Shown here piece by piece: positions 14,791 to 30,170 of a stretch of DNA of 30,170 bases. The position numbers were made by a program, and so were the translations under genes. Numbering within the stretch: the first letter of the stretch is position 1; each line of letters begins with the position of its first letter. The notes under the pieces were generated by a model, which was given only the letters and a program-made list of their open reading frames with translations, was not told the DNA's origin and did no database searches. The DNA lies in IMG/VR virus record IMGVR_UViG_2541047794_000005, positions 1 through 30,170 of that record. The stretch is one strand, 5' to 3'. The stretch is from a virus (taxonomy: Duplodnaviria > Heunggongvirae > Uroviricota > Caudoviricetes).

Positions 14791-16557
14791 ATGAACACCA
14801 CACTGACACCCGCAGATCTCGATCCCCGTCGGCAGGCCATGCTGCTGTACTTTCAGGGATACCGTGTAGCCCGCATTGCTGAAATGCTGGGCGAGAAAGT
14901 TGCAACCGTTCACAGCTGGAAAAAACGCGACAAGTGGGGTGACTATGGGCCGCTGGATCAGATGCAGCTCACCACCGCCGCACGCTACTGCCAGCTCATT
15001 ATGAAGGAGCACAAAGAAGGGAAAGATTTCAAAGAGATTGACCTGCTGGCGCGCCAGTCGGAGCGCCATGCGCGGATCGGCAAGTTTAACAATGGCGGCA
15101 ACGAAGCCGACTTAAACCCTAACGTCGCCAACCGCAACAAAGGCCCGCGCCGTCAGCCGGAAAAGAACGTTTTCACCGATGAACAGATTGAGAAGCTGGA
15201 AGAAATCTTCCATTCCTCCATGTTCAACTACCAGCGCCACTGGTGGGAAGCCGGAAAAACCAACCGCATCCGCAACCTGCTGAAGTCACGCCAGATCGGC
15301 GCGACCTTCTATTTTGCCCGTGAAGCCCTGATTGACGCCCTGCTAACCGGGCGTAACCAGATTTTCCTTTCCGCCAGCAAGGCTCAGGCCCACGTCTTCA
15401 AGCAGTACATCATCGACTTCGCCAAAGAAGTGGAGGTGGAGCTGAAAGGCGATCCGATGGTGCTTCCTAACGGGGCCACGCTGTACTTCCTCGGCACCAA
15501 TGCCCGCACGGCCCAGAGTTACCACGGCAACCTGTATCTGGATGAATATTTCTGGATACCGAAATTCCAGGAGCTGCGCAAAGTGGCTTCCGGTATGGCT
15601 ATTCACAAAAAATGGCGACAAACCTATTTTTCCACGCCATCCAGCCTGACACACAGTGCTTATCCGTTCTGGTCCGGTGCGCTGTTCAACCGAGGGCGCA
15701 ACAAAGCCGATAAGGTGGACATCGACCTGTCCCACAGCAATCTGGCCCCCGGCCTGCTGTGCGCAGACGGGCAGTACCGCCAGATAGTCACTGTGGAAGA
15801 TGCGGTGCGCGGCGGCTGTAACCTGTTCGACCTCGACCAGTTGCGCATGGAGTACAGCCCGGACGAATACCAGAACCTGCTGATGTGTGAGTTCGTGGAC
15901 GATCTCGCGTCCGTGTTCCCGCTCAGCGAGCTGCAGGCGTGCATGGTGGACAGCTGGGAAGTCTGGACCGACTTTCATGCACTGGCGCTGCGCCCGTTTG
16001 GCTGGCGCGAAGTGTGGATCGGTTATGACCCGGCAAAAGGTACGCAAAACGGCGACAGCGCCGGATGCGTGGTGGTGGCTCCGCCAGCCGTGCCGGGCGG
16101 CAAGTTCCGCATTCTTGAGCGTCACCAGTGGCGCGGAATGGACTTTCGCGCCCAGGCTGACGCCATCAAAAAACTGACCGAACAGTATAACGTGACCTAT
16201 ATCGGCATCGACTCGACCGGCGTCGGTCACGGGGTTTACGAGAACGTGAAAGCGTTTTTTCCTGCCGTCCGGGAGTTTGTCTACAACCCCAACGTTAAAA
16301 ACGCCCTGGTACTCAAGGCCTACGACATTATCAGCCACCGCCGCCTGGAGTTTGACGCCGGGCACACCGACATTGCGCAGTCATTTATGGCAATCCGTCG
16401 CGCTACCACTGCCAGTGGCAACCGCCCGACCTATGAAGCCAGCCGCAGCGAAGAAGCCAGCCATGCCGATCTGGCCTGGGCAACAATGCACGCACTGTTT
16501 AACGAACCGCTGCAGGGCGAGTCCGCCAATACCAGCAATATTGTGGAGATTTTTTGA
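14791..16557 (+). CDS. P: Terminase large (ATPase) subunit gpP (588 aa)
   Basis: Size matches P2 P. Divergent from O and followed by Q with ATGA overlap. Confidence 0.9.
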   Translation: MNTTLTPADLDPRRQAMLLYFQGYRVARIAEMLGEKVATVHSWKKRDKWGDYGPLDQMQLTTAARYCQLIMKEHKEGKDFKEIDLLARQSERHARIGKFNNGGNEADLNPNVANRNKGPRRQPEKNVFTDEQIEKLEEIFHSSMFNYQRHWWEAGKTNRIRNLLKSRQIGATFYFAREALIDALLTGRNQIFLSASKAQAHVFKQYIIDFAKEVEVELKGDPMVLPNGATLYFLGTNARTAQSYHGNLYLDEYFWIPKFQELRKVASGMAIHKKWRQTYFSTPSSLTHSAYPFWSGALFNRGRNKADKVDIDLSHSNLAPGLLCADGQYRQIVTVEDAVRGGCNLFDLDQLRMEYSPDEYQNLLMCEFVDDLASVFPLSELQACMVDSWEVWTDFHALALRPFGWREVWIGYDPAKGTQNGDSAGCVVVAPPAVPGGKFRILERHQWRGMDFRAQADAIKKLTEQYNVTYIGIDSTGVGHGVYENVKAFFPAVREFVYNPNVKNALVLKAYDIISHRRLEFDAGHTDIAQSFMAIRRATTASGNRPTYEASRSEEASHADLAWATMHALFNEPLQGESANTSNIVEIF

Positions 16558-17591
16558 TGGGAAAGAGTAAGAAGAACCGCGCTGCGTCGACGAAACAGAT
16601 CCAGCATAAAAGCCAGACTTCAGCCGAAGCATTCAGCTTCGGTGATCCCGTTCCTGTTCTGGACCGCCGCGAACTGCTGGACTATGTGGAATGCGTACAG
16701 ATGGATCGCTGGTATGAGCCACCAGTGAGTTTCGACGGACTGGCGCGAACCTTCCGCGCCGCCATACATCATAGCTCACCGATTGCAGTGAAGTGCAACA
16801 TTCTGACCAGCACCTACATCCCTCACCCGCTGCTCAGCCAGCAGGCTTTTTCGCGTTTTGTACAGGACTTTCTGGTTTTTGGTAACGCCTACCTGGAGAA
16901 ACGCACGAACCGCTTCGGTGAAGTTATAGCCCTTGAGCCTGCTCTGGCAAAATACACCCGACGCGGGTTAGACCTGGATACCTACTGGTTTGTGCAATAC
17001 GGTATGACAACCCAGCCGTATCAGTTCACGAAAGGCAGCATTTTTCATCTGATGGAGCCGGACATCAACCAGGAGATCTACGGCCTGCCCGGTTATCTTT
17101 CTGCCATTCCGTCAGCCCTGCTCAACGAGTCCGCCACGCTGTTCCGCCGGAAGTATTACATTAACGGCAGCCATGCGGGCTTCATCATGTACATGACCGA
17201 CGCCGCGCAGAACCAGGAGGATGTGAACAACCTCCGCAACGCAATGAAAAGTGCCAAAGGTCCTGGTAACTTCCGTAACCTGTTTATGTACTCGCCTAAC
17301 GGCAAAAAGGATGGGCTTCAGATTATCCCGTTGTCAGAAGTGGCGGCGAAGGATGAGTTCCTGAATATCAAGAACGTGAGCCGGGACGACATGATGGCGG
17401 CGCATCGTGTGCCGCCGCAAATGATGGGTATCATTCCCAACAATACCGGCGGTTTTGGGGATGTGGAAAAGGCCAGTCGCGTCTTCACAAGAAACGAAAT
17501 AGTACCGTTACAAAAGCGATTGCTGGAGCTAAATGAATGGCTTGGTGAAGAGGTAGTCCGATTCAATCCATATGAGCTTAATACTGACTAG
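16554..17591 (+). CDS. Q: Portal protein gpQ (345 aa)
   Basis: Size and position match P2 Q. Last gene before the cos-proximal end. Confidence 0.9.
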   Translation: MMGKSKKNRAASTKQIQHKSQTSAEAFSFGDPVPVLDRRELLDYVECVQMDRWYEPPVSFDGLARTFRAAIHHSSPIAVKCNILTSTYIPHPLLSQQAFSRFVQDFLVFGNAYLEKRTNRFGEVIALEPALAKYTRRGLDLDTYWFVQYGMTTQPYQFTKGSIFHLMEPDINQEIYGLPGYLSAIPSALLNESATLFRRKYYINGSHAGFIMYMTDAAQNQEDVNNLRNAMKSAKGPGNFRNLFMYSPNGKKDGLQIIPLSEVAAKDEFLNIKNVSRDDMMAAHRVPPQMMGIIPNNTGGFGDVEKASRVFTRNEIVPLQKRLLELNEWLGEEVVRFNPYELNTD

Positions 17592-17597
17592 CAAGCA

Positions 17598-17623
17598 TAA
17601 AAAAGCCCGGTATTACCGGGCTT
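17598..17623 (-). terminator. Intrinsic terminator hairpin (8-bp GC stem, 5-nt loop), T-run on the minus strand
   Basis: AAGCCCGG-TATTA-CCGGGCTT. On the minus strand it is followed by TTTTT, so it likely terminates the 59-aa gene transcript. The A-tract on the plus side may give weak bidirectional function for Q. Confidence 0.55.
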
Positions 17624-17646
17624 CATGCAAAACGCATTTCATGGAA

Positions 17647-17826
17647 TTAAGCAGCTTTCTGCTTTTCTTTGAGCTTACCATGCAGCTCATTTCCTTCAAA
17701 TTTGCAGTCCTGCATCATATGTGGGGCCGCTTGAAGTAGTTCTTCCATCGCGACGCCCATACGGCTGAAAACATCAGATACTGAGTAATGCTTCTGAGCT
17801 TTCTTGTCACTATGCGTCATAGTCAT
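17647..17826 (-). CDS. Small hypothetical protein (59 aa, MTMTHSDKKAQKHY...), below the ORF-track size cutoff
   Basis: Hand-read ORF with a strong RBS (GAGGAAATC-ATG), a TAA stop, and a terminator about 25 bp downstream. Confidence 0.5.
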   Translation of the reverse strand: MTMTHSDKKAQKHYSVSDVFSRMGVAMEELLQAAPHMMQDCKFEGNELHGKLKEKQKAA

Positions 17827-17905
17827 GATTTCCTCTTAGAGGTCAAGCCTCATCATCCGGTAGTGGATGTTTGGCGCAGCATTGTAGCACTGCGCAAAAA
17901 TTTAT

Positions 17906-18505
17906 CTACTGTTTCTTAGAAGTAATGTAGCGTCTTACTACATCAGTTATTGTAGCAAAAGGTGCCGAAAGCAAGCTTATATCACCTTTAAAACCAAATT
18001 TTTTATAGTGGTCAGCAACTTTTTGATTCAGGGCTTCAGGGATCCGAATCTCTTGACACCCAACCGCGCTACCAAAAAGATATACCGCCCACAATGTAAC
18101 CATGAACATGTTGCCGTAAAGAGGGTGCTCTACGTCATCATCTTTCACAAAAGATTCCACAAAATGGATCTCTATGACTCCAGCGTCCTCGTCAAAGGTG
18201 CACATAGCTGCGCCAGAAGGGATATGCCTAAGTGGCCCCGCAAGGAGCTTCAAACAAAATTCAAACTTATCACTTCGATTGCCAAACCGAGAAAAACCAT
18301 AATCCCATTCTAGCTGAGCGTATCCTGTGGTCAGGATCACATAGTCTTCATCACTGATTGGACCAACAGCCAACGGCATCTTCAAAGTATCGAGGAGAAA
18401 CTGAAGGTTACTTATACTTTGACTGGCAATCTGCTCTAAGTTCAATTCTCTGTCCTTCATGCTTACGACATTAAAGGCGACTACTTTAATGTCATTTTCG
18501 GACAA
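17906..18505 (-). CDS. Hypothetical protein (199 aa), AT-rich accessory gene between cos and Q
   Basis: ORF from the track with a TTG start at 18505 (an in-frame ATG lies at 18460). No recognised family; the C-terminal HYKKFGFKG is weakly reminiscent of a GNAT motif. Confidence 0.55.
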   Translation of the reverse strand: MSENDIKVVAFNVVSMKDRELNLEQIASQSISNLQFLLDTLKMPLAVGPISDEDYVILTTGYAQLEWDYGFSRFGNRSDKFEFCLKLLAGPLRHIPSGAAMCTFDEDAGVIEIHFVESFVKDDDVEHPLYGNMFMVTLWAVYLFGSAVGCQEIRIPEALNQKVADHYKKFGFKGDISLLSAPFATITDVVRRYITSKKQ

Positions 18506-18732
18506 AGACTATAAATCTTTAATGAAACAATAGCAGAACCTTTTAAAGGTTTGCTACCTATCACTGCAACTTGTGACAGAACACTAAATCTACAGCCAAC
18601 TCCGGAACACATTCAACATTTATTTAAATCCCTTCAAACAAGATTGCACAAAAACGCGCCCTCCCTTTCAGAAGAAAACCATCAGCGGGCCTGAGGCTAA
18701 GTGAATTTTACTATTTCAACCCGCGGCGTGCG

Positions 18733-18751
18733 CTCGTATCCCCGCCACGCC
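18733..18751 (-). other. Candidate cos cohesive-end site
   Basis: Minus strand reads GGCGTGGCGGGGATACGAG. The first 13 nt match the P2/186 cohesive-end sequences as I recall them, and orientation and location fit the P2-family map. Confidence 0.45.
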
Positions 18752-18800
18752 TGCCCGCTTTATGTAGTGGTTTTCATGCACCTGCATGACATGAGCAAAA

Positions 18801-18820
18801 GCCCGCCAGTTCTGGCGGGC
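18801..18820 (-). terminator. GC-rich hairpin, putative terminator of the kinase operon beside cos
   Basis: GCCCGCCAG/CTGGCGGGC stem. On the minus strand it is followed by TTTTGC. Confidence 0.4.
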
Positions 18821-19131
18821 CTTAACAAAAACGAGCCTCAAACGTTCATGCAAACTCATGCAGCATATACATACACTACATCAACAGCATCCATTGCTAT
18901 CATTTCCAGTTCGCTTCCTACAACATCATTGCGAATAGTTATGTTACCAAGCGGCTTTTTCATACCTTTTCGGCATGACACTTCAGACGCACCAATACTG
19001 ACGTGTAATGCTTCCCCCGCAACGTCAACCCACTTAATGGTAATTTAATGTAGTTGCATGAGACGAAAAAATCTCCATAGTTGACAGACTCTATGAATGC
19101 AGCATCACTAGCAAGCATGAATAAACATGCA

Positions 19132-19836
19132 TCATCTAACAGATACTTTTGCATAAATCAAAGGCCTATCCGAAGAGCCATTTTTACGTACGACCACTCC
19201 ACTGATATCATGGTTTTTACTAAGATCTCGTAATGCGGCGCACAATGCCTTGTTGACATACCCTAGATGATTGTCGTTTTTCGTTACTAATATGGCCAGC
19301 GGATCAACAGTATTGGTATCTTCATTGCGCAATATGACTTCATCACCAATTGATATCTCGTCAAGAGCTAGACGCCCTTCCTTAATCATGTGTCTCGTTC
19401 CGGCGACCTCCATGACATAATCAAAAGGTGGCCGAATAGAAGACAAGTCTGGGACAAAATAAAAACCATCACTAGCCACTTTTCCGCCAGTACAAGCGAG
19501 CAAAACGAAGTCATTCTCTCTAAAATCAGCAGGAAGACGAAACGTCAGCAAGTAATCGGCAAAATCTTCTCTTTTCCTGGAGGGTAACCTTCTTGAAAAG
19601 GTTTGCATAACGTCTTTGCGATGAGTCGTAACTTTTATGTCAAAAGCAGGAAAACCGTGAAAGCCTTTATCCCCAGCTTTAGCAAAATCTTTGCTATCCG
19701 TAAGATAATTAAACTCGTAGCCTTCAGACTCATCTTGAAGAAGTTCACCAACGACATAGCGAGAGCCGCCGTCGGTCGGTTGCCATGTCAGTAAGAGCCT
19801 ACTTGGCATGGGAATTTTTTCTATTAAGATAGTCAT
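19132..19836 (-). CDS. HipA N-terminal-subdomain-like (HipS-like) protein with a C-terminal HIRAN-like domain (234 aa)
   Basis: The N-terminal ~150 aa (LLLTW...VGELL...YEFNY; DFVLLACTGGKVASDGFYFVP) resemble the N-subdomain of E. coli HipA as I recall it. The C-terminal ~85 aa has an HIRAN-like pattern. ATGA overlap with the kinase gene. Confidence 0.55.
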   Translation of the reverse strand: MTILIEKIPMPSRLLLTWQPTDGGSRYVVGELLQDESEGYEFNYLTDSKDFAKAGDKGFHGFPAFDIKVTTHRKDVMQTFSRRLPSRKREDFADYLLTFRLPADFRENDFVLLACTGGKVASDGFYFVPDLSSIRPPFDYVMEVAGTRHMIKEGRLALDEISIGDEVILRNEDTNTVDPLAILVTKNDNHLGYVNKALCAALRDLSKNHDISGVVVRKNGSSDRPLIYAKVSVR

Positions 19837-20744
19837 GAAGTAACACCTTTAATCAGTTCAATACGCATGTTTGTTACACGAACAATCCATGCAGCACGTT
19901 CTCTAGTCAGCGGAACAGGGCAGTTTATTTCCGTCAACTCCGCAAAAGTTGAGTCCCAAAAGTCATGGTTCAAACGAGCCAGTCTTTCAGCTACCCGCTG
20001 TTTTAATTCTTCTTTTTTATCACAAAGTTCTTTGATTAACTCTAAATGACCTAATCTCTGATACTCATCTTTGCCCAGAGTTTTACGCAAATGATGCTTT
20101 CCCCGGCTAACATGCTCCCTGAGTCTATGATCGGTCCAATCAGCAACATGTTCCGGAAAGCGTTCGTAGCATAAGCTCGTACCATTATCGAAAAATGGTG
20201 CAAGCTGACACTCGCTGGTTAAAGGGGAGAAGATAAACCCCCAGTTTTCTTGATGTCTATCTGTATTACCTATTACTGCGTCAAAGAGAGCCATATTCTC
20301 CAACCACTCAACATAGTCAACTTTAAGAGCTTTCGCGATAATCCTCAGCCCTTCAATGGAATGCTTAGCTCCTTTCTCACGATCAAAATTTGGATCTCTT
20401 CGAACAAAGTAATCACCAGCGGGAGCAAATTTCTCATAATCTTTATGATGAAACCACTCAATGAGGGCCCCGCAAAACGTATGCCCCAAATCATTAGTCT
20501 TTAACGAAGGAACTGCTTTGGGGACATTAAAACCAAGCTGCAATCCAATCCTGTAGGCAACGATCTCACACCAAAATTGATCTGGGTATTTTTTAATACT
20601 TCTCTTAAAAAGATACGGCCACGATGCTTTGATACCATGGGGGGCAACATCAGGGGAAATAACCAATGCCTTAGAGCGAGCACCAACAGGATACTGTGCG
20701 AAAACATCTAGCTCAGTCCAATAGGTTACATCTAAGCAATCCAT
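19833..20744 (-). CDS. HipA-like Ser/Thr kinase, core domain only (303 aa, HipT-like)
   Basis: Motif VIGNTDRHQENWGF and a downstream FFDNG correspond to the HipA catalytic loop (GxTDxHxxN) and Mg-binding Asp. It lacks the ~150-aa HipA N-subdomain. RBS AGGA upstream. Confidence 0.8.
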   Translation of the reverse strand: MDCLDVTYWTELDVFAQYPVGARSKALVISPDVAPHGIKASWPYLFKRSIKKYPDQFWCEIVAYRIGLQLGFNVPKAVPSLKTNDLGHTFCGALIEWFHHKDYEKFAPAGDYFVRRDPNFDREKGAKHSIEGLRIIAKALKVDYVEWLENMALFDAVIGNTDRHQENWGFIFSPLTSECQLAPFFDNGTSLCYERFPEHVADWTDHRLREHVSRGKHHLRKTLGKDEYQRLGHLELIKELCDKKEELKQRVAERLARLNHDFWDSTFAELTEINCPVPLTRERAAWIVRVTNMRIELIKGVTS

Positions 20745-20759
20745 AGCTAAGTCCTATAT

Positions 20760-21305
20760 TTATTTTTTATTTAAATTCATATAGATGTGAGAAACCTGTG
20801 CGATCTGAAATAAAACATCATCGAATGCTGTGTGCCTAATGCCAGTGAAATTTTTATCAGCATGAGAAAAAATTCCTTTGCTTTCACCAAGTGCTAAGAT
20901 GGTTCTAACGTCAAGAGTATCTCTGAATGACCATGGGCAATCCAGACCCGCCTGTAACAGGGCATGATGCATGATCGTGCAGTCAAACTCTTTCCCGTTT
21001 CCCCACACTTTTACTCGGCCAGTACGATTATGAAGAATAAATGCCACAAATTCATTCAGAACCTCTAAAAGGTCCTTAGTGCCATCAAAATTTTCGTTTT
21101 TAGCTTCAGTACTTTGATTCATCCACCACTTTACAGTAGAGGGGGCAATGGTTCTGCCTGCTTGTTCATGATCAAGCGAAATAACTTGATAGAAACCCGG
21201 ACCAATCTCGCCAGTCTCCGGCACGAAAAAAGCCGCACCAACTGAAAGGATATAAGCTGTTTTTTCAACATCCAATGTTTCTATATCTAACATTACATGA
21301 TTCAT
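20760..21305 (-). CDS. DEDDh-family 3'-5' exonuclease (DnaQ/RNase T-like), about 181 aa from ATG 21305
   Basis: Exo I motif MLDIETLD near the N-terminus and Exo III motif HTAFDDV near the C-terminus. First gene of the three-gene operon. Confidence 0.75.
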   Translation of the reverse strand: MNHVMLDIETLDVEKTAYILSVGAAFFVPETGEIGPGFYQVISLDHEQAGRTIAPSTVKWWMNQSTEAKNENFDGTKDLLEVLNEFVAFILHNRTGRVKVWGNGKEFDCTIMHHALLQAGLDCPWSFRDTLDVRTILALGESKGIFSHADKNFTGIRHTAFDDVLFQIAQVSHIYMNLNKK

Positions 21306-21801
21306 AAGAAGCAATTGAAACCATTTAGTAAAAATTGAAAGCTATCACCACATTAATGCATGGCATGTACATTTGTGGACGAAAACAAGTATTCTGATTA
21401 TAACCCAAGTGAAAAGCTCAAGTGTCGTAACTTTCACTCGGTTGTTTTCAGTTTCGAAAAACTACTGGGAAGATCCATCTAGTGGTTGTATTCATGAGCG
21501 CGAATTCTCGCCATCAGCTCATCAGTCAACTCAGAAACCCACTGCAGAGCCAGCCCCTTCTCTTCATCACTACACTCACTAGCCGCTACAAGCTTAAGAA
21601 AAAAATCAATGCGCTGGAGCTTCAAAGACTCCAAAAAATAGTCCTGCATCTTTCCTCCTATGACACCACAAGCAATACTGTATGCACAACCACTGTTTAT
21701 ATTTACAGTATATAATAATCTTACTGATGTAAAACGTTTTTTACGTTCATCAGCCTGATATGCCTGGTATTATTAAGAGCACGAATTGTTAACCCACGTG
21801 A

Positions 21802-22158
21802 TTAATACAGGTTCCGCCACTTATCATCTTCCTGCAAACGCTGGTTCCGATAGAAGATACGCAGGCCTGCTCCTGACGGAATACTGCCACCGCGAAGGAG
21901 TAAATCGACCTCTTTCTCGCTGCCATCAAATCCTCTTGACTTCAGTTCATAGACGAGCTGCTGACGCTGATACTCTGTAATTCGCTGTTTGTAGTCTTTA
22001 CGCCGTTTCGGTTTCACCAGGCGTAATCTTGCTGCCAGTTCCTGGCGCTCTTTTTTGCTCATACTATGCAGGTAATCGTGCAACTCCTTGTCATCCATAC
22101 AGGTAATGTCAGTTCTGGTATCCCCATCTGTTGATTTATCTTTCTCCTGTTGGTTCAA
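21802..22158 (-). CDS. Hypothetical basic protein (118 aa), or a displaced C-terminal part of A
   Basis: ORF begins at a TTG overlapping the A stop, and no Shine-Dalgarno precedes any candidate start. Its frame is the one A would occupy if one 26-bp repeat copy were removed. Confidence 0.4.
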
Positions 22159-24242
22159 ATTTTCAGCAAGGGGACAGTTATTGCCACGAGTCCAAGGGGA
22201 CAGTTATTGCCACGAGTCCAAGGGGCGCAAGCGCCCTGGTCGGCTGCCGCCTCCTGAACGTCAACGGCCTTACGAACCATTTTCCACTTCACTGCATGAG
22301 TACAAATCTTGCCCTCTGCAATGGGTGACCAGATGCCATAAATACGAATACCGTGATCGCCATAGGCGGTCGGCTCTTCGTTAATTTCATAAGCTGTTCT
22401 GATAAGGTGATATTTGCGGGGAACCAGTACGCCGCCCTGCTTCATAATGTAGGTGGCAAAACAACCAGCATCAGCAGCAGCCAGGATTGCATCAAGGCGC
22501 GGGTTATCCAGTACCGGCGCACCTGCTTTTTTGTCCCCCTGTTGCCTTGCCGCCTGACCAGCCAGCAATCGCAGTTCACGGTAAGCCTGACGCCCCGGAA
22601 TGCCAAAGAAGCGGAATTGCTGAACACGATGCAGAGACGCCCAAGCATTAACGTATTCAGCATTATCACGCAGGGATTTCCCCGTTTCCTTGCTGATCTC
22701 GCCAGCCAGACCACGCCCGTCCATGTTCTTACTGATGTATTTCGCGATGTAGCTTGTTGGCGTACCTTTGCGCGGGTTAATCAACTCAGACTTAAAGCGC
22801 GGCCCAGTGTTATTGCCCAGCTCCTCGCGGTCTTCACGGATGGCAAACTTACGCAGTAATGCAGTGATGGCGCGGCGGTCTTTTTTGCGCATAAAACACA
22901 ACAGGTGCCAGTGAACTGTACCGTCATGATGCGGCTCAGCCACCCGCACGCCATACCAGCGCAATCCGGCTTTGTGCATCGCCTTACGAAATGCAGCAAA
23001 CATGCCGACCAGATAATCACTACTTTGTCTTACCGTCGCATTTGTCCAGGTTGGGTTGGGCCTGCCGTTATTTAGCGTGGAATGGAAACGTGACGGACAG
23101 GTGATGGTGTAGAAAACGGCGCAGTCACCGCGCATTTCCGCGATAAGCTCCAGGCCTTTAACACAGGCCATCATCTCATTGCGGCGATGCGCAGGGTTGC
23201 TGCTGCTGGCGTTTACCACATCCTCCATGTCCAGCGTGTCGCCGTCTTCGTTCACCAGTTCATGAGAACGAAAAAACTCCAGCGACTTACGGCGCTGCTC
23301 ACGTTTATGCATCACGGCTTCATAGCTGACATAGGGAGATGCTTTTTTGCTGACCAGGCAAACAGCACGCAACTGCTCTTCCCGCCATTCGCAACGCATC
23401 TTCCATAATTTCCGGTACCACCAGTCGGCGCACAACATACGCGCCAGCGAACCCGGAATGAGTTCATAGGGCACGGGTTTACGGCGGTTTCTTTTCCGGC
23501 GGAGTTGATCAAACGCAGGCGGGATGACATCCAGACGCAGGGTTTCCGCTGCCACCTTTTCCCATGTCTTGCGGATTTCTTCTGGCTTAACGTCATCGGT
23601 GACATACAAATCGCCACAAGCTGCATCAAGGCACATGCTCATATGCGCAGCGACAAGGGTAGACAAGCGTTTCACCTGATCCTGACTCATTTCAGGCAGG
23701 ATCAGCAGGCCGTCCAGCCCTTCATGGCTTGCCATAAAGCGAAAAGAAGTGGATAGCTGACTGTCGCGTACATGCTCCAGTCGTTCCAGACATGGCTTAA
23801 TCGTCTCACGCAAATAGCGGGAATAAGCCTTTGGCCTGCCTAGGCTGCTGAAGTATTCAATACGTTGCAACAGCGGCTTGCTGATATGGGAAGGCTGGGC
23901 ATTGACGTCCGCCAGAATGACCATATCTGGATTAAAACGCTGCTGCTCATGCGCCAGCTTTGCCCGGCTAATGAGCTTATCCTGCTCCATTTCGCGTTGG
24001 ACAGGATCACGGGATTCATTAAAGAAATAACGCTCCCAGACCTGATCACTCAGTGCCTCGCGGCGCAGTTGTTCCTGCTCGTTATCGGCAGCGTACAGAG
24101 TGATCAGGTTTGAAAGCGCAGAAACCGGCGCAACTTCCGCCGGGTCCAGATAAGGGTTAATAGCCTTTTTCGGGCTGTTCCATGAGAATGCTGCGGCGGC
24201 CTCGTTAAAGCCGCTGCAGTTGTTCATATCAGCATGGCTCAT
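22155..24242 (-). CDS. A: Replication initiation protein A (rolling-circle nickase, 695 aa)
   Basis: Motifs [25 protein letters not shown] and QFRFFGIPG...AYRELRLLA match the P2-family A protein. Confidence 0.85.
22170..22221. repeat. Perfect tandem direct repeat, 2 x 26 bp (GGGGACAGTTATTGCCACGAGTCCAA), within the last 20 codons of A
   Basis: Read directly from the sequence: 22170-22195 equals 22196-22221. Confidence 0.9.
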
Positions 24243-25095
24243 GCACGCACTCCGTACACGGCAGAACTATCCACGCCACGCGAAGGCTCAAATCCCACCC
24301 AGCAGCGCGCCCAGAAACAGCGATGATTTCTGTTGCAGATTTACTCTCACCAGCTGCTACGCCGATGCTGCGTTTTGCCTTGATGTAGTGGTGAGTAAAA
24401 TTGCGATACAGCGAACGGATCAGGGATGTGTCACTGTTAGAAACAATGACCGGATGTCCTTCTGATGACCGATGTTCAAGAACGGATGCCAGGTGATACT
24501 GGTCATCTTCAGTGAAGCCGTCAGTGTGATAACCGGAAAACGTGCCGTCATACGGCGGATCGCAATACACCACATCCCCCGCCTTCAACATCGCCAGCGT
24601 TTCATCAAAGCTGGCGCAGATAAACGTTGCCCGCTGGGCTTTTTCTGCAAATGCGCGAATTTCTTTTTCTGGGAAATACGGATTTTTATAATTACCGTAG
24701 GGAATGTTGAAATGCCCGCTCTTGTTATAGCGACATAAACCACGGTAACCGTGACGATTGAGATACAGGAAATATACCGCTTTCATGAAATCAGTAATTT
24801 CATTTGAGTAATTAAACTCCTGCCTTATGTTGTAATAAGCCACCTCCCTGTTTGCTTCCTTAAATAAAACTCTGGCGCGAGATATAAACGATTCACAATC
24901 AGCGGCAACCTTTTTATAGAGGTTGATTAAATCAGGATTAATATCCGCAACCAGATAGCTTGGATAATCCGTCTCCATCATCACAGCACAGGAACCCGCG
25001 AAAGGTTCAACCAGTCGCGGGCCAGCAGGAAGGTGTTTTTTCAGTTCGGACATAATTGCGGTTTTATTTCCCGCCCATTTCAGGATGGTGCTCAT
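24229..25095 (-). CDS. Dam-like DNA adenine (N6) methyltransferase (288 aa from ATG 25095)
   Basis: N-terminal LKWAGNK...LVEPFAGS (AdoMet motif I) and DPPY catalytic motif. Strong RBS AGGAGGTG. ATGA overlap with the upstream gene. Confidence 0.85.
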
Positions 25096-25394
25096 ACAGC
25101 ACCTCCTGCAATAACATATCCTAAAGCTTCTAATGGGGTTAATGAGCGAATTGATAGCATCACCCATTGTTCTGAAACTGCCATGACGTCATTAACCGGA
25201 AGCACATGAGAGATAACCGCGGCCCATTCCCTACCCGTAAATACGCCATGCTTCCATTCGCAAAGAGAAAGAACATCACCAACTTTATAGCCACGATCGT
25301 CTTTACGAAGTTCAGCCGTCTTTTGACCTGCAACCACAGCGTTGAAATACTTAGGTGCAATTTTTAATTGATGGATACGCACAGCCCCTGTCAT
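25092..25394 (-). CDS. ASCH/DUF3850-like small protein (100 aa from ATG 25394)
   Basis: [35 protein letters not shown] matches the pattern of ASCH-like proteins commonly paired with phage methyltransferases. RBS GGAGGTG. Confidence 0.6.
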
Positions 25395-25618
25395 ACAGCA
25401 CCTCCGTTGTAATGTTTGCCTTTCAGCTCTGCGATTTCCTGACAGGTAATGCAAAGCTGCGCTCCTGGAATGGCGCGGCGGCGTGCTGGCGGAATTGGCG
25501 CTTCACATTCAATGCAAAGCACGCGAGACACGCCCGGTGTTTTGGCACGGGCAGCACGGATATGGCGCTGGCGTTCTTCTTCAACGCGCTGCTGTACGAG
25601 ATCCATTGCATCAGCCAT
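25391..25618 (-). CDS. TraR/DksA-family C4 zinc-finger protein (75 aa)
   Basis: CIECEAPIP-x17-CITCQ zinc-finger spacing. Confidence 0.7.
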
Positions 25619-27570: not shown

Positions 27571-28449
27571 ATGAATTTCAAAAACGGAGGACAGGCAGTC
27601 ATAACGCGCATGCTTGAAGCGTATGGATTCAAGACGCGGCAAGCCCTATGTGAACAGTTCAATGTATCTGCAAGTACTATGGGAACGCGCTGGATGCGTG
27701 ACGCATTTCCTGCTGACTGGGTAATTCAGTGTGCAATTGAAACAGGAGCATCTATAGAGTGGCTCTCATTCGGAAAAGGCGTGCCATTTCCTAAGAATAC
27801 CGAAGTTCCCGCTAAATTAGAGGAACCAGCATCATTGGTTCAATATGTTCCCAAAGCCACCACCAACGAGAACCCAATTGTGAACCATCCAAATCTGGAT
27901 TCAGGTGGACGTAATGCGATAAACAGGCTAATGGAAGCGTATGGCTTTAAAACAAGACAAGAACTTGCCGACCATTTGAATGTGTCTAAAAGCACAATGG
28001 CGAATAGATACTTGCGAGACACATTCCCAGCTGACTGGATCATAAGATGCTCGTTGGAAACAAGAACTTCTCTTTTATGGTTAGCAACTGGGCGCGGGCA
28101 AAAACTTGGAAGCGAAGAAAGTGAAGCTTTAGAAATTCCTAAAGTAAAACTTATTGACAATCAAATTTTCGATGCTGGTCATTTATTGATAGATAAGTCC
28201 CTGCTTCCTCATTTTAATGATTTACTCGCAATTGAAGACGAACATTGCATAAATATTGCACACATGAATAAAGCTAATGTTGAAGACGGAAGATGGATTG
28301 TTCAATACCAAAATAATTTCAAGTTAAAACAAATTTTTCTATTACCTGGAGGCAATCTTCGAGTAACAGACGATGATTTAACATTTGATTGTGAAAAAGA
28401 AGATATAAAATTAGTTGCCAAAATTTTCTCACAGTACCGTACTATTTAA
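27571..28449 (+). CDS. CI-type immunity repressor (186 CI-like HTH) with a tandemly duplicated DNA-binding domain and an AT-rich C-terminal domain (292 aa)
   Basis: Two copies of MLEAYGFKTRQ-L...NVS-STM--R--RD-FPADW-I-C--ET--S--WL--G-G at residues ~9-70 and ~115-176. Divergent from Apl/Cox across the switch region. Confidence 0.75.
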   Translation: MNFKNGGQAVITRMLEAYGFKTRQALCEQFNVSASTMGTRWMRDAFPADWVIQCAIETGASIEWLSFGKGVPFPKNTEVPAKLEEPASLVQYVPKATTNENPIVNHPNLDSGGRNAINRLMEAYGFKTRQELADHLNVSKSTMANRYLRDTFPADWIIRCSLETRTSLLWLATGRGQKLGSEESEALEIPKVKLIDNQIFDAGHLLIDKSLLPHFNDLLAIEDEHCINIAHMNKANVEDGRWIVQYQNNFKLKQIFLLPGGNLRVTDDDLTFDCEKEDIKLVAKIFSQYRTI

Positions 28450-28464
28450 TCTTGAGGCATAGTA

Positions 28465-29493
28465 ATGGATTTTATAAAAAAACTCGAATTTGGAAATTAT
28501 ACTCTCCGTTTTGGTGATGATGTTTTGCTAGACTATTATGATGAAATTGTTTTCCCCTCTTTTTTGGAGATGGCAAACATCCGCAGAATATCTGACAAAT
28601 CAGAGTTCTTTTTCATTGATACTGAATGCGTCATACTTGACGAAGAAGCAACACCCCCAGTACTCGGAATTAAAGGTCGGATTATTAAGAATACATTATT
28701 AACCAGAGAACAAGTATTTGATGGTGCTGATTTGGTTGAAGATCATCAAGAGCTTGAAACAGCCCCGAGCTCTTTCTTTCTTCTAATATTAAACACTCAC
28801 AGATTAATTCTTTGCAAGGAAGTTAGTGGTGCTCCCACAATTCAAAACTTTCAGTCAACAAGTCAGTGTTTCTTAAACATAGAATATGAAAAATACATAT
28901 CTCATTTATACGAAACCGCACAAGAAGAACGCAAAGAAAACCCTGACTTACCTCGAGTCACTAAAAAAAGCTTACGGAACGAAATCAAACGCCCGAAGCT
29001 AAGAATAACGCCGTTAACTGACAAACAAAGCCTAGAGCAATTTATTGATAATTTTAATAAAATCCAAAATGTCTCAGTAAAACTTCTCCCTACAAATCAA
29101 GAAGAAATTGATAACGACGAATTTTGGGAGTCACTTGAAAGTGCCGGAGACGAAATGGGAAGTATTTCTACATCTATTCGCTTTTCAAACACCGATTCAG
29201 GCTTGAATCATGGTGCTGTTTTAGAACAACTCACATCAGCAACCAGATTGGCTAATTCAGGAATAAATATTAAAGGATATGATGACAATGGTGATATAAT
29301 CAAAGGTAGCAATGATGACTTTGTTTTGTTAAGTGAGATGAATGAATTATCAAAGGATACGGTAGTAGCTGCAAATGAAAGTTATGAGCGGTATGAAAAT
29401 CTTGTAGAAGAAGGTAAGATATCTCTACCCCGTTCTCTTTCACAAAAGACGATTAGAATTATTAGCAATATATATGAAAGGTTTGGTCGATGA
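28465..29493 (+). CDS. Hypothetical soluble protein (342 aa), AT-rich, immediately downstream of the repressor
   Basis: RBS GAGG 8 nt upstream of ATG 28465, which is 15 bp after the repressor stop. No family recognised. Confidence 0.7.
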   Translation: MDFIKKLEFGNYTLRFGDDVLLDYYDEIVFPSFLEMANIRRISDKSEFFFIDTECVILDEEATPPVLGIKGRIIKNTLLTREQVFDGADLVEDHQELETAPSSFFLLILNTHRLILCKEVSGAPTIQNFQSTSQCFLNIEYEKYISHLYETAQEERKENPDLPRVTKKSLRNEIKRPKLRITPLTDKQSLEQFIDNFNKIQNVSVKLLPTNQEEIDNDEFWESLESAGDEMGSISTSIRFSNTDSGLNHGAVLEQLTSATRLANSGINIKGYDDNGDIIKGSNDDFVLLSEMNELSKDTVVAANESYERYENLVEEGKISLPRSLSQKTIRIISNIYERFGR

Positions 29494-30170
29494 TAAATAA
29501 AATAGATGCTAAAGAAATAACCAAAGAGAAAAACCTTTGGGATGTTTACTTGCTCTGCAAACGGATTACTATTAGTACATTCCATATTTGCATTTTGCTC
29601 ACAGCATCTATTTTTTTATTAACAAACTCTTTTTTTATTGAGAAGGATATGTCTCATTTAGTATCTGACATTAGAAACTGGGCTTTGATTGGTTTTAACT
29701 TTGCAGTGACAACCTTAGGTTTTCTCATTGCTGGTTTCACAATATTTGCAACACTATCCAAACCCGAGATGTTTCTTCAGATGATGTCAATACAACATAA
29801 AAAAACACAGATGCCCACGTTAAAATATAACTTTATGGCATTTATGAAAGTTTTCATCTCATTTATTACGTTTACTTTCATTTATCTAATAATAATTCTC
29901 TTTTGTCAAAAAGATGGAATAATTGGCAATATAATTGATTTATTTCCATATTCAAAATCGATAAAAGAATTAATTATTAAATTTGGATACTGTGTTATAG
30001 GGACTAGCCTTATTTACTTAGTGTTAGTAGTAAAGACATTTATTTTTAATATCTACGCTATCATAATGAATAATATTCGTTGGGAGTTATACATTAAAAG
30101 AAAAGAACAAAGACTTTCCAGTAACAAAGAGACAATCAATAAAAACATAGATGTAACTAAAATGCATTAA
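29490..30170 (+). CDS. Hypothetical polytopic membrane protein (226 aa, about 4 transmembrane helices), AT-rich
   Basis: ATGA overlap with the upstream gene. Four long hydrophobic segments. Stop TAA is the last codon of the window. Confidence 0.7.
   Translation: MINKIDAKEITKEKNLWDVYLLCKRITISTFHICILLTASIFLLTNSFFIEKDMSHLVSDIRNWALIGFNFAVTTLGFLIAGFTIFATLSKPEMFLQMMSIQHKKTQMPTLKYNFMAFMKVFISFITFTFIYLIIILFCQKDGIIGNIIDLFPYSKSIKELIIKFGYCVIGTSLIYLVLVVKTFIFNIYAIIMNNIRWELYIKRKEQRLSSNKETINKNIDVTKMH

Follow-up and report, generated by a model that had tools for sequence, protein, structure and literature searches.

What do two small genes with no recognizable function do between the portal gene and the cohesive-end site (cos) of an Escherichia coli prophage, and do they belong together at all? 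The question arises from the DNA window analyzed here, the 30,170 nt (positions 1 to 30,170) of IMG/VR virus record IMGVR_UViG_2541047794_000005, which represents a 186/P2-like E. coli prophage and is 100% identical to the prophage of strain SF-173 across the studied region. On its minus strand the window carries a gene for a divergent, acidic acyltransferase with a predicted GNAT fold (17906-18445; best model 179 aa from TTG 18445; phrog_4350) and, downstream of it, a gene for a 59-aa partner protein (17647-17826; phrog_2741) that fell below the length cutoff of the first list of open reading frames (ORFs). Judged from comparison of sequences, the GNAT gene and the small gene are an obligate, mobile and selected unit. 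We propose, with a probability of roughly 0.45, that this cassette is a new toxin-antitoxin-like exclusion module.

The evidence for a unit begins with the pairing itself. With the large protein as the starting point, loci were gathered from species-representative genomes, IMG/VR, phage records and assemblies, and in 110/110 of them a homolog of the small protein is encoded 60-196 nt downstream of the GNAT gene on the same strand. Look-ups led by the small protein in Salmonella, E. coli and Morganella arrived at a GNAT gene just upstream there too. About 120 loci were examined in total, comprising at least 50 distinct sequence pairs, and none of them holds the GNAT gene without the small gene. 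The locus of Escherichia phage Eeyore is a case in point: its GenBank record annotates other short ORFs at the position of the small gene, where an unannotated 53-aa homolog (ending ...RQGRRRVREAA) lies downstream of the GNAT homolog and is followed by a strong terminator (locus L005, 4789-4950). The first-pass annotation of the window had paired two ORFs at 17906-18505 and 17647-17826; both are present on the minus strand, the small gene follows the large one throughout, and the pairing is conserved in related prophages.

The two proteins also diverge together. Among the 50 distinct pairs, their pairwise identities correlate with r=0.94 over a range from 100% down to about 30%. The ratio of nonsynonymous to synonymous substitution rates (dN/dS) is 0.06 for the GNAT gene and 0.11 for the small gene, by which measure both genes are evidently under purifying selection. 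For the same genome pairs, synonymous divergence is about fourfold lower in the small gene (~0.25) than in the GNAT gene (~1.0). This points either to constraint at the nucleotide level that acts additionally on the small gene or to a recombination boundary that separates the two genes.

Dependence within the pair runs one way. In Photorhabdus temperata (L032), an intact small gene lies beside a frameshifted GNAT gene, and about 205 E. coli records match the small gene only. In the three such records that were sampled, all of them dusA-integrated prophages (L116, 2483-3684; L118; L119), a 190-aa Panacea/SocA-like antitoxin gene and an unrelated 128-aa gene take the exact place of the GNAT gene upstream of the small gene. 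These variants retain the small gene at 97-99% identity, and the junction of the swap falls at its ribosome-binding site. Panacea (DUF4065) is the promiscuous antitoxin domain of PanAT pairs (PMC8832971). The swap thus places the small gene in toxin-antitoxin-type company, whereas the window itself contains no Panacea domain. Two general traits of toxin-antitoxin loci are seen in this material: the pair is co-directional across unrelated contexts, and the candidate toxin is never found alone while an orphan partner is tolerated.

Mobility is apparent from the positions that the pair occupies, which comprise at least five unrelated genomic slots with unrelated flanks in each. In P2-like prophages of E. 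coli, Mixta, Pantoea and Pectobacterium, the cassette always abuts the portal stop codon at a distance of 51-61 nt, with the cos core upstream. Lambdoid prophages carry it immediately downstream of CI-type S24 repressors (Serratia, Brenneria and others) or immediately downstream of Q antiterminators of three Pfam families, ahead of the lysis genes. Further copies adjoin int in the lambdoid mEp460 type or lie by tail genes in Photorhabdus. The P2-type copy is present in 11/5426 complete E. coli genomes and the mEp460-type copy in 358/5426, including O157:H7, and related pairs are found in prophages of Salmonella, Enterobacter, Pantoea, Pectobacterium, Photorhabdus and Morganella. In these respects the pair resembles lambdoid morons of the rexAB, bor and stx-type positions, since homologous pairs follow CI-type S24 repressors or Q and carry their own promoter and terminator; it differs from RexAB and other characterized morons in having no sequence or fold relationship to them. 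With a predicted promoter and terminator of its own, a deviant G+C content and its absence from P2 and 186, the cassette is, on sequence grounds, an autonomous moron. The first-pass annotation had likewise taken it for a self-contained moron, and its signals, its differing composition and its presence or absence among relatives bear this out.

In the window, the insertion can be delimited on both sides. The left flank is the conserved portal gene (16554-17591, plus strand; homolog of P2 Q and 186 W; PF04860 at 8.5e-17 and RefSeq annotation), which is convergent with the cassette. The right flank is cos, the 19-nt cohesive-end sequence at 18733-18751 that forms the boundary between the left and right ends of the virion DNA, with no strand assigned. 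Its reverse complement, GGCGTGGCGGGGATACGAG, is identical to the annotated 186 cosL, GGCGTGGCGGGGAAAGCAT, at 15/19 positions, 12 of them contiguous, so that the earlier candidate for this site holds. From the portal stop to cos the distance is 1141 nt in the window, compared with 176 nt in 186 and 167 nt in P2; the gap of about 1.1 kb is therefore an insertion relative to both phages, as had been suspected, and in a megablast search with 17400-19100 other P2-like phages match only the 150 bp flanking cos. In most P2-clade loci, the cos core lies 207-435 nt upstream of the GNAT gene. The G+C content is 41-46% from about 17600 on, against 53-61% in the terminase and portal genes, in agreement with the AT-rich character first reported for the region; the low-G+C stretch runs beyond cos, to about 22000.

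The premise that Q adjoins cos in the P2 family holds for P2 and 186 and does not generalize. Fels-2 carries a gene for a 565-aa hypothetical protein on the portal side of cos (locus L113, 1235-2932), and phage 500465-1 carries a hypothetical gene and a TIR gene there (L114, 1626-2928). In the portal-cos interval, DUF8209 and DUF1493 genes occur in Pantoea (L012, 4710-5467) and Arc and ORF6N genes in Pectobacterium (L009, 4235-5502). Pantoea and Pectobacterium relatives have extra genes that separate cos from the GNAT/small-gene cassette. P2-like phages regularly carry cargo on the portal side of cos.

Nor is cargo at this junction unusual, as the first-pass annotation had supposed. The P2 hotspot described by Rousset et al. 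2022 comprises the whole gpA-gpQ interval, cos included (PMC9122126), and the cassette lies between gene A and Q, adjoins cos and is variable among related prophages. It shares with the old/tin cargo of that interval (PMC9122126) its location, its contact with cos, its variation between similar prophages and its position beside a candidate defence system; it differs in lying on the portal side of cos, at the left end of the virion DNA, while old and tin lie at the right end. Table S5A of the same study lists WP_001485637 and WP_021523861 as 'hypothetical + hypothetical', and the pair is not among the systems that were cloned there (PMC9122126). WP_021523861 is the 59-aa protein, and WP_001485637 appears to be an earlier accession of the large protein, given its adjacency in every listed arrangement. 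Apart from that table, our literature search found no mention of the protein accessions of the pair, and both proteins are 'hypothetical' in every annotation source that our searches returned.

The small gene has well-conserved signals of its own. A sigma-70-like promoter on the minus strand (17881-17908; TAGATA, 16 nt, TG-c-TACAAT) was predicted by a promoter scan and overlaps the GNAT stop codon. The pattern TAGA[CT]N-N16-18-TAnn[AC]T, often with an upstream TG, recurs at the GNAT stop in 46/50 distinct pairs, with near-variants in the other four, against a background rate for this pattern of 0.10 per kb per strand. Around the -10 element lies a palindrome, GCGCAG-N10-CTGCGC (17874-17895, minus strand), which is conserved in the P2 clade and may be an operator or an RNA hairpin. 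A Shine-Dalgarno sequence, AAGAGGA (17831-17837, minus strand), precedes the start codon, ATG 17826, by 4-5 nt and is conserved as ctctaagaggaa in the P2 clade. The gene is followed by an intrinsic terminator with a 10-bp G+C-rich stem, a 3-nt loop and a T6 run (17602-17624, minus strand; fold z = -3.2), 11 nt beyond the convergent portal stop, and a hairpin with a T-run lies at most 90 nt from the small-gene stop in 50/50 distinct pairs. The strong ribosome-binding site and the terminator recognized at the outset are thus both present. Neither the cassette nor two lambdoid loci that were scanned gave an Rfam match at or near threshold. In the lambdoid clade, the small gene follows a ~150-nt leader that contains several conserved hairpins (TTACCTnnnAGGTAA, GAGAC...GTCTC; L004, 5532-5727; equivalents for example in L066 and L057), and this leader may be regulatory.

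The GNAT gene required a revised gene model. Besides TTG 18445, which gives 179 aa, possible starts are ATG 18460 (184 aa, the choice of PGAP) and TTG 18505 (199 aa, 17906-18505), the last being the model first put forward. In an alignment of 15 P2-clade loci, TTG 18445 is the sole start common to all homologous loci, and the sequence upstream of it contains in-frame stops or frame shifts in relatives. The 179-aa model is therefore preferred, and the 199-aa model was dropped since its extension is not conserved among the aligned relatives. A Shine-Dalgarno-like AAGGA (18453-18457, minus strand) lies 7 nt before TTG 18445, and a purine-rich block (AGGA, GGGA or GGAG) precedes the conserved TTG at the same position in all aligned P2-clade loci. 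Further upstream, a conserved block on the minus strand (18477-18513), consisting of a -10-like TATAGT (18513-18508) followed by CCGAAAATGACATTAAAGTAG, is a candidate promoter and leader of the GNAT gene; a consensus promoter scan did not detect this block. As a separate observation, CCGAAAATGACATTAAAGTAG (18477-18500, minus strand) reads as a mini-ORF, MTLK-stop, in the window. Its ATG shares the reading frame of the GNAT gene in some relatives (L035, L045), where 195-aa products result.

Sequence searches say little about the large protein. It has no Pfam or NCBIfam match at E<=1 and no PADLOC match, its only PHROGs match is phrog_4350, a family of unknown function, and its family profile finds nothing among all PDB sequences at E<=10. 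Structure prediction was more informative: AlphaFold2, run on a 27-sequence alignment, gave a confident model (pLDDT 85, pTM 0.82) with the canonical GNAT order beta1-alpha1-alpha2-beta2-beta3-beta4-alpha3-beta5-alpha4-beta6 and one extra helix at each end. By its modelled fold, the large protein is a member of the GNAT superfamily. In a Foldseek ranking KacT comes first, with AtaT, NatD and TacT3 close behind, and a BFVD fold search returned generic viral GNATs only. The structural rankings are flat across the superfamily, and so no subfamily can be assigned. The first-pass annotation had suggested GNAT toxin families for this protein; the fold stands, on the AlphaFold2 model and Foldseek, and membership in the known toxin families does not, as there is neither a DUF1778/RHH partner nor sequence similarity.

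Conservation within the family fits an active enzyme. E102, Y152, G156 and F157 are invariant and N145 nearly so (27-30 sequences); in the model, E102 ends beta4, and N145 and the Y152-x3-GF segment lie in alpha4. GNAT-type catalytic positions, a beta4 Glu and an alpha4 Tyr within N-x6-Y-x3-GF, are thus present where the model places these elements. Across 60 relatives down to 16% identity, the Tyr and one alpha2 Trp are nearly invariant. The loop between beta4 and alpha3 contains an invariant H112-P-L-x-G116-x-M118 where GNATs have the motif Q/R-x-x-G-x-G/A, which binds the pyrophosphate of acetyl-CoA: one Gly is retained, the last G/A is replaced by Met, and the loop is longer than usual. 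The enzyme looks catalytically competent, with a putative acyl-transfer activity. The family is small, at 76 clusters in an exhaustive profile search of 1.84 billion representatives, and all its members are acidic (isoelectric point (pI) 4.1-5.8). In a Pfam scan of the 60 relatives, only one touches PF00583, weakly (E=0.006), and one UniRef entry names a homolog an 'N-acetyltransferase domain' protein.

The small protein has a very different character. It matches phrog_2741, of unknown function, at 1.6e-30; Pfam and PADLOC scans gave no match, and the only NCBIfam hit, PcsB at E 0.002, is far under cutoff. As an obligate partner it measures 53-60 aa, with a median pI of 10.1. A profile search found 109 clusters of 33-90 aa, all stand-alone and without a fusion among them, and every cluster with a source name comes from Enterobacterales. 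Its AlphaFold2 model is a single helix (residues 16-39) with disordered tails and no strand. Family alignments identify G24, A26, L30, P35, E47, G50 and the C-terminal Ala as invariant across clades, while there is no invariant lysine and the N-terminus varies between clades. These invariant residues look like a binding helix and a turn, and not like an acceptor site; the small protein was accordingly rejected as a substrate acetylated at a fixed lysine or at its N-terminus. In the window it ends in ...KQKAA, and a C-terminal AA is found in 86/109 family clusters, usually as K/Q-A-A following a basic run, most exceptions being V/T variants or read-through artefacts. We take this basic-then-Ala-Ala end to resemble ClpX tags of the ssrA/MuA type, and by analogy it could make the small protein short-lived.

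The only exception to the stand-alone status of the small protein comes from virulent phages. The Jedunavirus protein kpv52_59 of Klebsiella phage KpV52 (phrog_11133; L006, 2833-3816) is a 327-aa acidic early protein, whose residues 57-94 align with residues 19-56 of the small protein at 61% identity. Going by this similarity, the segment might mimic the antitoxin or represent an interaction motif that the two proteins share.

How might such a pair work? We propose that continuous expression from its own promoter would supply the small protein, which would bind and restrain the GNAT enzyme. If the supply of the small protein stopped or were titrated, for example upon phage infection or loss of the prophage, the enzyme would be freed and could then acetylate a conserved cellular or phage target, and the outcome might be exclusion, abortive infection or prophage addiction. 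Binding by the small protein, toxicity of the enzyme and its neutralization, instability of the small protein and the nature of the target are the parts of this scheme that we infer. Toxin-antitoxin logic fits best because the enzyme never occurs without its partner, the partner has its own promoter and a helix of the binding type, the two proteins are opposite in charge (GNAT pI 4.1-5.8 against a partner median of 10.1), and the partner ends in the basic-Ala-Ala sequence. Exclusion, abortive infection or prophage addiction is suggested because the cassette sits in the P2 defence hotspot and, elsewhere, beside repressor genes. A toxin-antitoxin or defence role had already been raised in the first-pass annotation; the one-way dependence, the separate promoter of the small gene and the location in defence hotspots suggest it indirectly, by comparison.

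Characterized modules offer a partial precedent. Like TacAT, AtaRT, KacAT, ItaRT and GmvAT, the cassette is a two-gene mobile module that combines a GNAT-fold enzyme of ~160-180 aa with a small protein, and toxins of these systems are among its nearest solved structures. In the model, the alpha4 Tyr of the cassette enzyme also falls at the site of the Y144F/Y145F mutations in the matched toxin structures. However, the partner here is a single-helix protein of 53-60 aa in place of the ~90-aa RHH/DUF1778 protein of TacAT and AtaRT, its gene lies downstream after a spacer of 60-196 nt with its own promoter, and the enzyme is acidic. In structural alignments with the TacT, AtaT and KacT toxins the identity is 12-19%, and there is no detectable sequence similarity. 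The family profile matches none of the TacT, AtaT or KacT chains in the PDB at E<=10, and by sequence the enzyme does not group with the 'true TA clade' of GNAT toxins. GNAT-DUF1778 systems are defined by an adjacent DUF1778/RHH antitoxin, or DUF4065 in one clade (PMC9177977). The ORF list and Pfam scan of the cassette contain no small ORF of the DUF1778/RHH type.

Several observations weigh against a toxin-antitoxin-like module. No PADLOC model matches either protein. The small protein lacks a DNA-binding domain for autoregulation in the style of type II systems, as seen from the Pfam scan and the AlphaFold2 model; the genes do not overlap, and the enzyme gene comes first. A GNAT toxin that binds tRNA would not be expected to be acidic, as this enzyme is, and with a structural ranking that is flat over the whole GNAT superfamily, the toxins at its top carry little weight. 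Many lambdoid copies lie downstream of Q, where strong late lytic expression is expected and a function that benefits the phage would fit equally. Finally, the Panacea variant could be read as a sign that the small protein has more than one partner, or that it is part of the flanking backbone.

The location after Q leads directly to the main alternative, in which toxin logic plays no part and the small protein serves the enzyme as adaptor or substrate. The small protein would then recruit the GNAT enzyme to a host or phage protein or be acylated itself, to the benefit of the phage. For instance, modification of a receptor-proximal factor or an injection factor could exclude superinfecting phages, or the pair could act in anti-defence or adjust host physiology, either in the lysogen or at late stages of infection. 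We regard this as somewhat unlikely. Late expression from the many copies between Q and the lysis genes would suit it, as would the strong conservation of the acceptor-side loops of the enzyme; however, a fixed acceptor site on a small protein with no invariant lysine and a variable N-terminus is unlikely, and neither the one-way dependence, with the GNAT gene never alone and the small gene sometimes so, nor the separate conserved promoter of the small gene would be explained. Acetylation of N-termini in the manner of NatD/Naa40 is a poor parallel too, given 8-13% identity to the GNAT enzyme, a partner N-terminus that is not conserved and the flat ranking in which NatD appears.

Alternatively, the GNAT enzyme might detoxify a small molecule (an antibiotic, a microcin, a polyamine or a phage-inhibiting metabolite) as a trait of lysogenic conversion, with the small protein as an accessory regulator. 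Prophage morons often carry resistance-type traits of this kind, and many structural neighbours of the enzyme are indeed small-molecule acetyltransferases, such as SpeG and the nourseothricin, streptothricin and aminoglycoside enzymes. We nevertheless consider this reading quite improbable: no resistance-family hidden Markov model in NCBIfam or Pfam matches, such enzymes normally need no obligate 57-aa partner with its own promoter, and the family is tiny and confined to prophages.

It is also conceivable that the genes are functionally independent, the small gene being a landing pad or part of the backbone whose upstream slot takes either the GNAT gene or the Panacea pair. The E. coli records that match the small gene only would be explained in this way, as would the exchange of the upstream gene exactly at the ribosome-binding site in the three sampled prophages, and the lower synonymous divergence of the small gene leaves room for a recombination boundary. 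This explanation is less probable still, since the pair has travelled jointly into unrelated slots (P2 cos-portal, after CI, after three Q families, by int and in the Photorhabdus tail region) and since the proteins co-diverge over the full range of identities. Finally, the cassette might be a canonical type II toxin-antitoxin system in which, as in TacAT/AtaRT/KacAT, a GNAT toxin acetylates aminoacyl-tRNA. In favour of this, KacT, AtaT and TacT3 rank among the best structural matches, but the reading is highly implausible and was rejected: the defining DUF1778/RHH (or DUF4065) antitoxin is absent from the cassette, the two genes stand in the opposite order, no PDB sequence is matched by the family profile at E<=10 although the PDB includes toxins of this kind, and all members of the enzyme family are acidic, which argues against a tRNA-binding surface.

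Returning to the toxin-antitoxin-like exclusion module, a bolder version can be formulated. The pair might found a new family of acetyltransferase toxin-antitoxin or abortive-infection systems, with a mini-antitoxin of about 57 aa that restrains an acidic GNAT and is marked for proteolysis by its conserved basic-Ala-Ala end, and virulent Klebsiella Jedunaviruses would counter the system with the mimic embedded in kpv52_59; we think it unlikely that all of this is so. What is already known is the location as a published hotspot and the pair as two catalogued hypotheticals. New here are the fold assignment, the recognition of an obligate, mobile and selected unit with conserved signals, the one-way dependence, the Panacea swap and the Jedunavirus homology.

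The remaining genes of the window place the cassette in its surroundings. Left of it, the terminase gene (14791-16557, plus strand) precedes the portal gene. Past the cassette and cos, all on the minus strand, lie genes for a HIRAN-domain protein and a HipA-like kinase (19132-20744), which match PADLOC candidate system PDC-M03 B/A at E 4e-36 each, next to them a gene for an Rv2179c-like 3'-5' exonuclease (20760-21314), and replication gene A (22155-24242). An 'Exonuclease + HipA' locus from another strain was cloned by Rousset et al. and is absent from the systems reported active (PMC9122126). In strain 504239, the same GNAT/small-gene pair lies beside DinI-type genes in place of HipA/HIRAN. 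The pair is therefore a separate unit, found with different right-end cargo, and a functional link to the neighbouring HipA/HIRAN genes was rejected on the same grounds. Downstream of gene A lies a DNA adenine methylase gene (~24229-25454, minus strand), for which the annotation of the identical SF-173 prophage gives a frameshift (L001, 26622-27478). The gene for a 186-type CI repressor lies at 27571-28449. Two plus-strand ORFs directly downstream of CI and upstream of int, 28465-29493 (342 aa) and 29490-30170 (at least 226 aa, running off the window), have no Pfam or PADLOC match. In strain 504239 (L007) the slot between CI and int holds GmrSD and HEPN genes, so that this interval is another cargo or defence slot, with uncharacterized content in the window.

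The analysis has a practical yield in the portal-side cargo slot and in the corrected gene models, namely a 179-aa enzyme and the unannotated small gene of phage Eeyore. The module is not rare, yet both of its proteins match no domain or defence model. If our proposal is true, a gene pair that recurs in the P2 hotspot would have a function assigned to it, and the defence repertoire of prophages would be extended by an acetyltransferase effector whose partner is of a new kind.

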